A DNA stretch of 64,000 nt from Escherichia phage T4. The notes beneath the pieces were generated by a model, which saw only the letters and a program-made list of their open reading frames with translations, had not been told where the DNA came from and made no database searches. Each line of letters begins with the position of its first letter. The stretch's first letter is position 1. The position numbers and the translations under genes were made by a program. Below, one piece after another: positions 254 to 59,450 of the stretch. The DNA lies in the sequence record NC_000866.4. One strand, written 5' to 3'.

Positions 254-912
254 CATTGCATTCCGATTACGAAAAACTGTGGACGAGTAATACCACCAAT
301 GCAACATTTACTATTACAGCAGTAGTGTACGGTGTCAATATGGACACTATAAATCTTATCCATATCAGGAGATTTGACAGGCTCATCAATTATATACAAA
401 ATTCGCGAAAGCTTTAAACCTCTGAACTTGCTTCCTTTATTACCAATAAAACTGCGTACAGAATCAGTAAATAAACGAAAACGTATATCATCATTAGAAT
501 AACGCGAAAATTCCTTTTTGATGTTATTTGCAGAAATTTTAGCATAAGCTGAAGTATTAGAAAGAACAATAACTGTTCCGCCATCATACAACCAATTAGC
601 AGCAAAGTTAGTCACAGCAATTGATTTACCGGATTGACGTCCACCATCTAGTCGAAGTGTACAATACTGTTTAAGTAAGTCTTCAAATGGCGGGATATAT
701 TCGTTTTTACAAATTTCTTCTACTCTAGCATCAGAATGGTGTGTAAAAGCATTCATCAGGGATAGATAAGGACCAGTTAAAAATGTTCTCATTTCTTCTC
801 TATAAGCTCTATAAGTTTGGGCCATTCCGTGGCACATGAATTGTCCATTTCTGTATTTACCCATTACCGCGCTTGGGCTCGACCTTATTACAGGTTGGCG
901 GGAATCCCTCAT
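253..912 (-). CDS. P-loop NTPase-like hypothetical protein
   Basis: 219-aa ORF from the track; Walker-A-like GGRQSGKS; same orientation as and immediately downstream of denV. Confidence 0.55.
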   Translation of the reverse strand: MRDSRQPVIRSSPSAVMGKYRNGQFMCHGMAQTYRAYREEMRTFLTGPYLSLMNAFTHHSDARVEEICKNEYIPPFEDLLKQYCTLRLDGGRQSGKSIAVTNFAANWLYDGGTVIVLSNTSAYAKISANNIKKEFSRYSNDDIRFRLFTDSVRSFIGNKGSKFRGLKLSRILYIIDEPVKSPDMDKIYSVHIDTVHYCCNSKCCIGGITRPQFFVIGMQ

Positions 913-938
913 ATAATCATGAGGTCCAGGTTGTTCCC

Positions 939-1355
939 TTATGCATAAATCGCCTTACCGTAGTATTTGTACCAAGTAGGACGTTGTGCAATTTTTTCAT
1001 CTAAACGAGCTTGTGATATAGCAATAGAAGCTTCATGGGGAATATAATCACCACGGAATTCCTGAGGAATATCACTAATATCCTGGACTGTAGTATCCTT
1101 GATATTAAAACCACGTTTTAAACATTCAGCTATAAGCTCAATTTGACGTTTACGTAAGAACTCGAGCTTATCGTAAAAGAATGTAACATGACCTGCGCCA
1201 AGGATAAAAGTAGGACTGATTTTAAAATCACGAACACGTTTACCGTTAGCAACATGCTTACGAACTGCACCAAAAACACGCGGCAATTCACGATATTCAG
1301 CCATTAAGTGTTGGTCAGCCAATTCAGATACTAAAGTAAGGTTGATACGAGTCAT
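939..1355 (-). CDS. denV: endonuclease V, pyrimidine-dimer DNA glycosylase/AP lyase
   Basis: 138-aa ORF ([28 protein letters not shown]...) matches my recollection of T4 endonuclease V. Confidence 0.95.
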
Positions 1356-1384
1356 TTTAGTGTTCTCCTGTAGTTGATAGGTCT

Positions 1385-1413
1385 ATAGTATCATACCTAC
1401 AGGAGATGTAAAC
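1385..1413 (-). promoter_or_regulatory. early promoter (sigma70-like, -35 GTTTAC, 17-nt spacer, -10 TACTAT) for denV
   Basis: minus-strand GTTTAC at 1413..1408 and TACTAT at 1390..1385; followed by conserved leader CTATCAACTAC and SD AGGAG. Confidence 0.55.
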
Positions 1414-1415
1414 TG

Positions 1416-1718
1416 TTATTTATCTTTAATTGCTTTAGCTGCTTCGATAGCCGCTTGCTGAAGGTCATCCATAGACATGCCGAACTTAGAAGCAAAGTTA
1501 TCAATTTTCTTTTCGACGGCATTCAAAGGCTTGGCCTGTTTACCTTCATTAGCGCCAGGAAGAGCGAGAATACGCTCTCTGTCAATATAAAGGCTTACAA
1601 GTTTCTTACGGTCTTTATCGGGCAAATCATGAAATGAATGGGCCTTTTTATTTACAGCGGCTTCTAATTTACCTGCGCCCACTCGCGCTTCGGCAATAAA
1701 TTCTTGATATGTTTTCAT
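1416..1718 (-). CDS. ipII: internal protein II (packaged head protein)
   Basis: 100-aa ORF starting MKTYQEFIAEA (capsid targeting sequence shared with ipIII); position between denV and ipIII as in T4. Confidence 0.9.
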   Translation of the reverse strand: MKTYQEFIAEARVGAGKLEAAVNKKAHSFHDLPDKDRKKLVSLYIDRERILALPGANEGKQAKPLNAVEKKIDNFASKFGMSMDDLQQAAIEAAKAIKDK

Positions 1719-1769
1719 ATGTTTCCTTTAAATGTAAATATTTTTATTATTCTATCCTAGAATTGTGAT

Positions 1770-1799
1770 AATATATTCACAATTCTAGGAGTTGTAAAC
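1770..1799 (-). promoter_or_regulatory. early promoter upstream of ipII (-35 GTTTAC, -10 TATATT)
   Basis: minus-strand GTTTAC at 1799..1794; -10 overlaps the centre of a 14-bp perfect inverted repeat (1755..1768 / 1777..1790). Confidence 0.45.
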
Positions 1800-1833
1800 T
1801 GCTTTTATTTAAGCGTCCCAAGTATAAGCTTTA

Positions 1834-2415
1834 TTAAGAATTACCACGGGCTGCATTAGCAACGGCGTAAGCGTACTGAATATTAGCGTCTTTAAACTTA
1901 CCTTTAGAGGTATCTATTTCTGCCTTAAAGCCGCCTTTAGTCATAACATCGGCAAATTCTTTACGGAAAGCCATTGCATCAAGACCTTTCCATGATGATT
2001 TATGCTTGGCAAATTCAAGACCTGCGAAGTTGACAGCTTTAGCCAATTTATTATCAATGACCCATTTACCGGCTTTAGGCACAAACTTCGGGCCTTTCTG
2101 TTTAGAGAACAGTTTTAAATTCCAGCGGCGAAGGTCTGCATCAGCTTTAACAAATTCTGAGTCTAAGTTACTAGCAACAACATCTTCAATATGAGCAAAT
2201 TTAAGTCCGTCAACTTCAATATTTAAATCGGTACGCCAGCGAAGTCCTTCCCAAGCGAAGGCTTTAAAGTCGGAAGCCTTTGTAGCTAAGTACCGTTCAA
2301 TAGGAGCTGTTTTAGGGTCAAAGCCGTTTCCTGATCGGTAGGTCCACTCATCTTTGTTAATGCCTTTGGCCTTTACTACAGAAGCTTCGGCAATAAATTC
2401 TTGATATGTTTTCAT
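1834..2415 (-). CDS. ipIII: internal protein III (packaged head protein)
   Basis: 193-aa ORF starting MKTYQEFIAEA; 5' end and RBS lie in a 47-bp perfect repeat shared with ipII. Confidence 0.9.
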   Translation of the reverse strand: MKTYQEFIAEASVVKAKGINKDEWTYRSGNGFDPKTAPIERYLATKASDFKAFAWEGLRWRTDLNIEVDGLKFAHIEDVVASNLDSEFVKADADLRRWNLKLFSKQKGPKFVPKAGKWVIDNKLAKAVNFAGLEFAKHKSSWKGLDAMAFRKEFADVMTKGGFKAEIDTSKGKFKDANIQYAYAVANAARGNS

Positions 2416-2464
2416 ATGTTTCCTTTAAATATTTTAATTAGTAATTGTCTATTCAAGTAATTGT

Positions 2465-2498
2465 GAATATACTATCACAATTCCAAGAGAAAGTAAAC
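2465..2498 (-). promoter_or_regulatory. early promoter upstream of ipIII (-35 GTTTAC)
   Basis: minus-strand GTTTAC at 2498..2493; AT-rich -10 (ATAGTA/TATATT) 17-19 nt downstream; 8-bp inverted repeat AATTGTGA/TCACAATT around the -10. Confidence 0.45.
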
Positions 2499-2502
2499 AG
2501 CT

Positions 2503-3490
<988 letters not shown>

Positions 3491-5934: not shown

Positions 5935-5967
5935 AATATAATATCACGTTTCTAATAGATTGTAAAC
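5935..5967 (-). promoter_or_regulatory. early promoter (-35 GTTTAC) upstream of e.6
   Basis: minus-strand GTTTAC at 5967..5962; AT-rich -10 (ATATTA/TATTAT) after a 17-nt spacer. Confidence 0.4.
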
Positions 5968-9514: not shown

Positions 9515-9542
9515 TTTATTCTCCTCAGTAGTTGATAGGGTA

Positions 9543-9572
9543 ATAGTATCACAGCTAAAACCCTATGTAAAC
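9543..9572 (-). promoter_or_regulatory. early promoter (-35 GTTTAC, 18-nt spacer, -10 TACTAT)
   Basis: minus-strand GTTTAC at 9572..9567, TACTAT at 9548..9543, conserved CTATCAACTAC leader; upstream AACTTTGTGAAA shared with the ipI promoter. Confidence 0.55.
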
Positions 9573-9590
9573 AACTTTGTGAAATATTTA

Positions 9591-9878
9591 TTACAAAAGA
9601 TTTTTAGCAATAATCTTGAGATGTGCCGCAGAAATGTGTTTAGCTTTAAACAACGCAGTTTCTTCAGCAGGAGAGATAACGATTGTAGCACCATCCTTTT
9701 TAGCAGACCACCCATCACCTAGGTAAACAGTACCTTTGATTTCTTCGCCATCAACCAGACTAATCATTGGTTTACCTTCTCGTCCTTTATTTGCTTTAAT
9801 AACTTCAGAAGTAAGAGTAGCTTCGGTAATGGTAGAAACCGGGGTAGTTGTAGAAGTAAATTCTTTAAATGTTTTCAT
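9591..9878 (-). CDS. ipI: internal protein I (packaged anti-restriction protein)
   Basis: 95-aa ORF (MKTFKEFTSTTTPVSTITEATL...) matching T4 IPI as I recall it. Confidence 0.9.
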   Translation of the reverse strand: MKTFKEFTSTTTPVSTITEATLTSEVIKANKGREGKPMISLVDGEEIKGTVYLGDGWSAKKDGATIVISPAEETALFKAKHISAAHLKIIAKNLL

Positions 9879-9909
9879 TTTTATTTTCCTAATTAATTTT
9901 GATGAGGTA

Positions 9910-9939
9910 ATAGTATCACTACCTCATCAGTATGTAAAC
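9910..9939 (-). promoter_or_regulatory. early promoter for ipI (-35 GTTTAC, -10 TACTAT)
   Basis: minus-strand GTTTAC at 9939..9934, TACTAT at 9915..9910; 9-bp inverted repeat GATGAGGTA/TACCTCATC flanks the -10. Confidence 0.55.
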
Positions 9940-9951
9940 AACTTTGTGAAA

Positions 9952-23155: not shown

Positions 23156-23160
23156 ATTAA

Positions 23161-58741: not shown

Positions 58742-59032
58742 TTATTTACGGAATGAAATGAAAGCAGCAACTGAAGCAACTAAACTGTCTTCAATATAAA
58801 CTTCAATTTTTACAGGAGCTTCTGACTCAAATTTACCTGTTACTACACCCTGAAAAATACTTTCAGTCTGTTCTGGCTTTGAAAAATTTTCAGAAGGAAA
58901 AATTCCGAACTTTTTATCTGTTCCAAAAATTTTGATAAATTCATCGTAAACCGCTTCGTTAAAAGCATTATCAGCAGGAATAACGCCTTCAACTACAAGT
59001 TCTTGACCTAAAAAGCGTAAAGAAGATTTCAT
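58742..59032 (-). CDS. hypothetical protein (T4 alt.-3 position)
   Basis: 96-aa ORF downstream of an early promoter. Confidence 0.55.
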   Translation of the reverse strand: MKSSLRFLGQELVVEGVIPADNAFNEAVYDEFIKIFGTDKKFGIFPSENFSKPEQTESIFQGVVTGKFESEAPVKIEVYIEDSLVASVAAFISFRK

Positions 59033-59057
59033 TTTGTGTTCCTCATGTTATGTTAGT

Positions 59058-59093
59058 AAGACTACTATAACACAACACGAGGGACTTGTAAAC
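59058..59093 (-). promoter_or_regulatory. early promoter (-35 GTTTAC, -10 TATAGT) upstream of alt.-3
   Basis: minus-strand GTTTAC at 59093..59088 with TATAGT after an 18-nt spacer. Confidence 0.45.
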
Positions 59094-59450
59094 TACATTT
59101 TGAACTTTTTAGTACGCGTAATAGGCATGCGTCGATTTTATACTGTTTCATTGTTTGAAGAGCAGTATCAAAAACAGCATTAATGACACCAATTGGATTT
59201 CCACCCAAGTTTTTAAGCTTAACTAATGATAGTTTCTCATTAACACCTATCATTACGATATGCATCATTTTATCGCCTGGTTTAACGTTTTATTTGTATC
59301 ACCGCCAGAGGTGTATGTACAAAATCTAAATCCAGGAAGTACACTTTCTTCACCGGCTTGAATAGCAAAAATTTGTGGTATTTTATGCTTAGGATTTAAT
59401 GTAACAACCGGCGCCGAAGCGCCGTCAAATAATTCTGTAATAAGTTCCAT
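59065..59450 (-). pseudogene. frameshifted partial duplicate of the alt 5' region (two ORFs of 61 and 67 aa; T4 alt.-1 and alt.-2 positions)
   Basis: ORF 59265..59450 aligns to Alt residues 1-55 and ORF 59065..59268 to Alt residues ~64-130; one nucleotide missing relative to alt between 59268 and 59300 shifts the frame; 28-bp identity with the alt 5' end. Confidence 0.6.

Follow-up and report, generated by a model that had tools for sequence, protein, structure and literature searches.

What is a perfect 14-bp inverted repeat for, when it is laid over the early promoter of one gene and directly behind the end of another? The question is raised by the region between genes e and denV of Escherichia phage T4, which we analysed within a window of 64,000 nucleotides (the whole stretch of DNA under study, from record NC_000866.4). 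On the minus strand of this window the genes e, ipIII, ipII and denV follow one another in that order, and the 115-nt spacer from the ipIII stop codon to the ipII start codon is the home of the repeat. The two flanking genes encode IPII and IPIII, which are injected and inhibit GmrSD-type restriction (PMC12373910); their nature as injected anti-restriction proteins is also described in PMC9391042. For the repeat itself, the initial annotation had offered two explanations, namely an operator for a dimeric DNA-binding protein or a hairpin formed when RNA reads through from the upstream gene. That interpretation is partly supported by the present analysis, which upholds the hairpin in RNA and lends no support to the operator.

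The repeat proved to be exactly as it had been described. Its arms, TCCTAGAATTGTGA (1755-1768) and TCACAATTCTAGGA (1777-1790), are 100% complementary over 14 bp with 8 nt between them, and among perfect hairpins with a loop of 3-12 nt it is the longest in the 64 kb. When 100 first-order Markov sequences of 64 kb each were taken as the null, stems of 14 bp or more turned up in 2 of these 100 simulated windows, and the expected count was 0.03. Read on the minus strand, the element runs GTTTAC-AAC-[UCCUAGAAUUGUGA]-AUAUAUUA-[UCACAAUUCUAGGA], and its stem is AT-rich, with G-C pairs at 5 of the 14 positions. A consensus scan predicted for ipII a sigma-70-type promoter with TTTACA at 1798..1793, a 17-bp spacer and TATATT at 1775..1770 (10/12 match), and this places the -10 hexamer in the loop, in agreement with the proposal that the AT centre of the repeat coincides with the ipII -10 region. 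The smaller version of the dyad that had been noticed in front of ipIII is likewise there, with 8-bp arms, AATTGTGA (2475-2482) and TCACAATT (2459-2466), around TAGTATAT at the equivalent place and with TAGTAT in the loop. The features of the locus, together with the comparable promoters of the window, are collected in Table 1.

Table 1. Positions in the 64,000-nt window of the ipII promoter/hairpin element, its neighbours and the promoters found in the census
Feature	Position	Strand	Remark
5' arm (sense strand) UCCUAGAAUUGUGA	1777..1790	-	doubles as ipII promoter spacer, immediately 5' of the -10 box
Loop AUAUAUUA, 8 nt	1769..1776	-	holds the -10 hexamer
3' arm UCACAAUUCUAGGA	1755..1768	-	predicted start (about 1763) inside
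-35 element G-TTTACA (T4 early-type GTTTAC)	1793..1799	-	preceded by A-rich AAATAAAAGC (1800-1811)
Gene e 3'-end relic ACTTGGGACGC	1813..1823	-	carried along with cassette B
ipII leader, A/U-rich	1719..1754	-	Shine-Dalgarno AGGA 1727..1724; outside the hairpin
ipII AUG	1718..1716	-	
Cassette A (e to ipIII)	2459..2498	-	GTTTAC 2498..2493; -10 box TAGTAT 2474..2469 in the loop
Cassette C (ipII to denV)	1364..1413	-	GTTTAC 1413..1408; arms 1397-1406 / 1364-1373
e (lysozyme) CDS	2997..2503	-	
ipIII CDS, 193 aa	1834..2415	-	upstream gene; its read-through RNA would form the hairpin
ipII CDS, 100 aa	1416..1718	-	with MKTYQEFIAEA capsid-targeting leader
denV CDS	1355..939	-	
Census promoters	1413 (denV), 1799 (ipII), 2498 (ipIII), 5967, 6359	-	
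Census promoters, continued	6696, 9572 (after ipI), 9939 (before ipI), 59093	-	

The palindrome is an element known since the T4 record of 1986, and it sits in a described class of promoter/stem-loop cassettes. That record, X04567.1, is entitled "Bacteriophage T4 DNA for 58.3 to 65.5 kb early region", and positions 1300-3100 of the window match it at 100% identity. At this place it annotates "inverted repeat B/B'", a putative stem-loop and potential transcription terminator (IpIII), and it puts the "pot. -10 region (IpII)" between the arms B and B'. Two further inverted repeats are listed there, A/A', which joins the gene e terminator to the ipIII -10 box, and C/C', which joins the IpII terminator to the denV -10 box and the denV ribosome-binding site; we keep these letters and speak of cassettes A, B and C in front of ipIII, ipII and denV, respectively. 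Furthermore, an independent annotation of phage SA79RD describes an overlapping T4-type early promoter and rho-independent terminator, that is, a cassette of the same type. As a separate observation on this region, the lysozyme encoded by e (2503-2997, minus strand) and wild-type T4 lysozyme in the PDB (e.g., 2lzm) differ at 2 residues, G12R and R137I.

Which RNAs contain the hairpin depends on where transcription of ipII begins. With sigma-70 geometry, the start is expected about 7 nt past the -10 box, and that of ipII probably lies at about 1763, within the 3' arm. With the predicted +1 inside the 3' arm, only RNA that reads through from ipIII would contain both arms. Folding agrees with this picture, for read-through RNA (a 56-mer) reached -20.4 kcal/mol (z -6.2) and kept the 14-bp hairpin as an independent element, and RNA from the ipII promoter, 1763 to 1690, reached -3.5 kcal/mol (z +0.6) and is unstructured. 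The proposal of a hairpin in read-through RNA thus fits the anatomy, the predicted fold, the 1986 annotation and the literature on PeSLs (promoter-early stem-loops) that is discussed below.

Several roles for such a hairpin were considered. In the read-through fold, neither the Shine-Dalgarno sequence of ipII (1727..1724) nor the AUG (1718..1716) pairs with the hairpin; the Shine-Dalgarno sequence lies about 30 nt outside the stem, and this fold ruled out its sequestration. Because that sequence is not in the stem, the role in translational discrimination that cassette C and the e-denV cassettes of relatives may have is inapplicable here. A canonical intrinsic terminator was also rejected, since the cassette B stem is followed by UAGAAUAAUAAAAAUAUUU and a U-tract is absent; a terminator scan called no terminator-like site at 1755-1790, and the two results together make efficient intrinsic termination doubtful. 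Like intrinsic terminators, the element is a stable hairpin directly after a gene, and it was a potential terminator in the 1986 annotation, but it departs from them in its missing U-tract, its 8-nt loop and its 5/14 G-C pairs. At 23159, 44610 and 61541 the window does contain hairpins of the typical terminator kind, GC-rich and with tetraloops. Rfam covariance models run against positions 1300-2600 gave no match up to E = 1.

We favor, with a probability of roughly 0.6, the explanation that the ipIII/ipII element is a promoter/stem-loop cassette, a T-even analogue of the PeSLs, in which a read-through hairpin acts as transcript boundary, an embedded promoter restarts transcription, and the whole forms a linker for recombination. 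In this view, the ipII early promoter, of sigma-70 type, would be built into the inverted repeat in such a way that the 5' arm is the spacer, the loop is the -10 box and the 3' arm lies over the start. Transcripts from the ipII promoter, starting in the 3' arm, would form no hairpin, and transcripts that read through from ipIII would carry both arms and fold into the 14-bp hairpin. This hairpin may mark the 3' boundary of the ipIII message, through attenuated read-through and/or a block to 3'-exonucleases, and the embedded promoter would then restart transcription for ipII. With a hairpin boundary and an embedded restart promoter, each internal-protein (IP) gene would become a self-contained unit; beyond this, the repeated cassette, about 140 bp in length, could offer a homology patch for the recombinational gain and loss of IP genes. 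In all of this, the analysis establishes the anatomy of the sequence, its fold, the recurrence of the design, the paralogy, the variability of the locus and the prior annotation, and we infer promoter activity, start site and terminating or stabilizing activity from the DNA; our literature search found no T4 5'- or 3'-end mapping for the ipII promoter or for a 3' end at the hairpin.

On the operator explanation, a dimeric host or phage protein would bind AATTGTGA-N8-TCACAATT and repress the ipII and ipIII early promoters. Its appeal lies in the dyad being centered on the -10 box, the classic repressor position, in the presence of the dyad at both IP promoters, and in the TGTGA/TCACA and AATTGTGA half-sites, which we take to resemble those of CRP (TGTGA) and of the lac operator (AATTGTGA). 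However, the spacing in cassette B is N8 rather than N6 (CRP) or N4 (symmetric lac operator), and a regulon-like set of sites is missing. The search for other TGTGA-N-TCACA dyads that had been suggested as a check returned TGTGA-N8-TCACA at exactly 2 sites in the 64 kb, both of them paralogous cassettes, with none exact beyond these; with one mismatch allowed there were 4 matches against 2.4 expected, and with the CRP spacing of N6 there were 0 in the window. A CRP-type site was rejected on spacing and site count. The 'GTGA' of the left half-site, moreover, falls in the promoter spacer beside the -10 box, and the right half-site is simply the complement of the left. When compared with the T4 early consensus that the SA79RD record quotes, GTTTAC(N14)gtggTAttaT, 'GTGA' matches 'gtgg' in cassette A and in the ipI cassettes and is one base out of register in cassette B. 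The ipI, denV, 6359 and 59093 promoters have different stem sequences at the equivalent positions, and right-arm variants in relatives are of the G.U type, which keeps the RNA pairing and changes the DNA half-site. With only two paralogous exact sites and unrelated stems at other promoters, the operator explanation is unsupported, and we consider it scarcely credible.

The kinship of the two exact dyads follows from their surroundings. A direct repeat of about 140 bp (1687-1823 vs. 2384-2529, 697-698 bp apart) flanks ipIII, and cassettes A and B lie inside it, so that they are paralogues and not independent occurrences. The repeat spans the relic of the gene e 3' end (ACTTGGGACGC), the promoter/hairpin, the leader and the shared codons MKTYQEFIAEA; since cassette B carries the gene e relic, it must have been copied from the one behind gene e. 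In evolved T4 lines, ipIII was lost in 3 of 5, by deletions "from 0.7 to 6 kb" (PMC9391042). Cassettes A and B lie 698 bp apart, and recombination of the two would delete ipIII cleanly, in keeping with its repeated loss, and would give the smallest of these deletions, to judge by its 0.7-kb length rather than by endpoints.

Cassette C adds a further element to the design. Its stem encloses the -10 box TACTAT (1390..1385) and folds at -18 kcal/mol (z -3.6). The Shine-Dalgarno sequence of denV lies in its 3' arm, as CAGGAGAA, within which there is a GGAG RegB-type motif as well. Read-through RNA would here hide the denV ribosome-binding site, and the promoter's own RNA would not. The logic is that of control of the gene e type, but it is built on an early promoter. 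In that type, known from T4 e, soc, 49 and I-TevI, a hairpin has a promoter inside its 5' arm, and translation is possible only from the transcript that this promoter starts (PMC3014915). Cassette B shares with these four that the hairpin would form in read-through RNA only and that the internal transcript would be without the 5' arm; it differs from them in that their promoters are late and their Shine-Dalgarno sequence or AUG is in the 3' arm, whereas its own promoter is of the early type and its Shine-Dalgarno sequence lies outside. Cassette C and the cassette at 59093 do fit the e/soc/49/I-TevI pattern, with the downstream Shine-Dalgarno sequence in the 3' arm.

The PeSLs of phages RB49 and phi1 are strong sigma-70-like promoters combined with stem-loops (Arbiol et al. 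2010, PMC2839356). According to the same authors, the stem-loops mostly lie between -35 and -10 or overlap the -10 box, the one stem-loop put to experiment, from RB49, matched rrnB T1 in terminator strength, and recombination of one PeSL with another excises circles and shuffles genes (PMC2839356). The PeSLs were later extended to the PST/T4 pair, with the promoter consensus TTTACW-N17-TAYWAT (Comeau et al. 2014, PMC4122927). Cassette B resembles them in being intergenic and A/T-rich upstream, in its sigma-70-type -35 and -10 elements with a 17-bp spacer, in a stem-loop over the -10 box (one of the two commonest subclasses), in the Shine-Dalgarno sequence and start codon downstream, and in its repeated copies in a hyperplastic locus whose relatives differ by gene insertion, deletion and exchange. 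It differs in its AT-rich stem without polyG/polyC tracts and in its promoter of the T4 early type (GTTTAC); in addition, the authors draw the PST/T4 stem-loops just upstream of the promoter, whereas the cassette B stem brackets the -10 box. As to membership in the class, a predicted early-type promoter, a stable stem-loop over this promoter and repeated cassettes at a plastic locus are all found here, and the marks of homology to the RB49/phi1 PeSLs, namely G-run/C-run stems and near-consensus TTGACA/TATAAT, are lacking. Where Arbiol et al. turn to the T-even IP locus, they call the elements of Repoila et al. 1994 'analogs, not homologs' of PeSLs and characterize them as based on T4 early promoters, with stem-loops that are weaker and AT-rich (PMC2839356). 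As cited in PMC2839356 and PMC4122927, Repoila et al. 1994 (EMBO J 13:4181) deals with the loci considered here, both ipI and the IP locus between e and denV, and shares the idea that conserved 5'/3' boundary sequences permit IP gene shuffling.

The design is by no means confined to the locus under study. A census of the whole window with the pattern GTTTAC-N17-19-TAnnnT returned 9 minus-strand promoters directly after stop codons. At 7 of these 9 a stem encloses the -10 box (z -3.6, -6.2, -2.7, -4.7, -2.6, -3.5 and -5.5), and the promoters at 5967 and 6696 have no stem around it; random 50-mers of the window fold at a mean of -6.1 +/- 3.3 kcal/mol. The stem sequences of the census promoters are unrelated (UCUCCUGUAG, CUGAUGAGGUA, AUAGGGU, AUAGGCU, CCUCGUGUUGUGUUA), and it is an architecture that recurs, not a binding motif.

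Two of these places merit description in their own right. At 59037-59096 (minus strand), downstream of alt-related ORFs and before an ORF of 96 aa (59032..58742), lies the strongest promoter-embedded hairpin of the window, at -23 kcal/mol (z -5.5), with the -10 box TATAGT at the 5' end of the loop region and a Shine-Dalgarno sequence, GAGGA, in the 3' arm. The ipI gene (9878..9591, minus strand) has promoter/hairpin cassettes on both sides (9520-9945), which share TTTCACAAAGTTGTTTACATA...GTGATACTATTACC; the two stems differ, CUGAUGAGGUA/UACCUCAUCA vs. AUAGGGU/ACCCUAU, and show G.U variants in relatives.

Conservation in related phages had been named as the test by which the proposals might fall, should the dyad be lost where the promoter persists, and its outcome is divided: relatives conserve the inner dyad of 8 bp, but all 14 bp pair perfectly in T4 records alone, and the cassette is missing from three phages in which ipIII and ipII are likewise adjacent. 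The exact cassette B occurs only in 13 T4 records, and other matches are 60-90% identical, mainly over the palindrome. Among 19 distinct homologous cassettes (from T2, RB5, RB68, PYps32T, JS98-like phages, Mosigvirus and others) the 5' arm CTCCTAGAATTGTGA is common, and the 3' arm is imperfect, reading TCACA[A/G]TT-A-CT-T-GGAGGG or a variant of it. Across these 19 cassettes 89.7% of the stem cells are paired, against 44-50% with the partner columns slid; the alignment has no compensatory double substitutions and does not exceed a column-shuffle control, and within such a homologous family stem conservation is inseparable from overall sequence conservation. One-sided changes, on the sense strand, produce G.U at 9 stem positions vs. 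A.C at 4, a bias that leans to structure at the RNA level and is not significant, only suggestive. Further variants were sought in viral-contig scans (24, 4, 13 and 3 loci) and a single metagenome scan (5 loci), and two disruptive singletons were among them.

The state of the outer stem goes along with the gene downstream of the cassette. With denV or vs.8 downstream, the outer stem is well formed, and the Shine-Dalgarno sequence makes up its 3' arm; with an IP gene downstream, whose own Shine-Dalgarno sequence is distant, the outer stem is degenerate. The T4 cassette B is the exception, as the 3' arm bulge is lost and, with further changes, 14 uninterrupted pairs result. One may therefore ask whether the T4 repeat is a functionless relic of an ancestral hairpin that hid the Shine-Dalgarno sequence of the downstream gene, its perfection owed to quasi-palindrome templated correction and not to selection. 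Correction of this kind is known in T4 (Ripley and colleagues). Consistent with such an origin, the CTCCTAGAATTGTGA arm of relatives pairs imperfectly with the 3' arm quoted above, the outer part of which is the denV or vs.8 Shine-Dalgarno sequence, and the cassette B 3' arm has lost the bulged A, with every change raising complementarity; its Shine-Dalgarno sequence is far outside the stem, and the perfect form is restricted to T4 records. The absence of the cassette from three phages with the same gene pair points the same way: in W143, PTE-Eco05 and phage 132, ipIII and ipII are adjacent, with some 40 nt of spacer or another hairpin between them, and the cassette is therefore dispensable. 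Nevertheless, selection for a stronger hairpin could explain several unidirectional changes just as well, and the unrelated stems that enclose the -10 box at 7/9 promoters in the window argue for selection on the architecture, so that we regard a functionless relic as unlikely.

Read as a promoter/stem-loop cassette, the element takes its place in the variable anatomy of the locus. Gene orders of e-denV-Ip4, e-Ip4 and e-ipIII-ipII-denV occur, with cassettes of this type joining the genes in each case, and the order differs in PYps32T, RB68, RB5, T2, W143 and phage 132.

A perfect palindrome may also act as DNA. In supercoiled T4 DNA it could extrude as a cruciform, and thereby make the ipII promoter, whose -10 box would then lie in the cruciform loop, sensitive to supercoiling or present endonuclease VII with a target that stimulates recombination. 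Either strand folds as single-stranded DNA at -13.0 kcal/mol (z -6.4 and -6.9), the arm length and the AT-rich center are within the range known to extrude, and the cassette is at a recombination-prone locus. However, relatives have only 8-bp inner stems with G.T positions, which would not extrude, so that any role at the DNA level would be specific to T4. The authors of the PeSL work, moreover, credit the shuffling to homologous or site-specific recombination between cassettes (PMC2839356), and we judge a cruciform decidedly unlikely. More speculative still, and in our estimation very unlikely indeed, is that the T4-specific 14/14 perfection reflects such a role, with the cruciform switching the ipII promoter and/or, as an endonuclease VII target, seeding IP shuffling; if this were true, the cassette would go beyond a homology patch and be an active site of recombination.

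As a discovery, the ipII repeat carries little weight, given that the element has been annotated since 1986 and that its class, cassettes by which accessory genes of T4-like phages are flanked, insulated and shuffled, has been described. Its value is one of context: repeated promoter/stem-loop cassettes would explain the gain, loss and independent expression of anti-restriction IP genes, and AT-rich hairpins without a U-tract have termination, 3'-end protection and translational discrimination as candidate roles.

Two further observations concern the surroundings of denV. At about 817-935 (minus strand), downstream of denV and inside the 5' part of the 219-aa ORF 64.0/vs.8, there is a conserved block that is richer in GC (…GGACCTCATGATTATATGAGGGATTCCCGCCAACCTGTAATAAGGTCGAGCCCAAG.GCGGTAATGGGTAAATACAGAAATGGACAATTCATG.GCCA.GGAATGGCCC…); this block of about 817-935 has no Rfam match, and its overall fold is not unusual (z 0.37). 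It recurs past the last IP-locus gene in many T-even phages (L043-L046, L030, L037-L042 and L062), and is partly present between ipIII and ipII in W143. Finally, upstream of denV in JS98/RB69-like contigs (L026-L029), the -10 box is followed by a hairpin that takes in the denV Shine-Dalgarno sequence (AGUGUUCUC…GAGAACACU); such a hairpin would also form in the promoter's own transcript, and represents a different subclass of the cassette idea.
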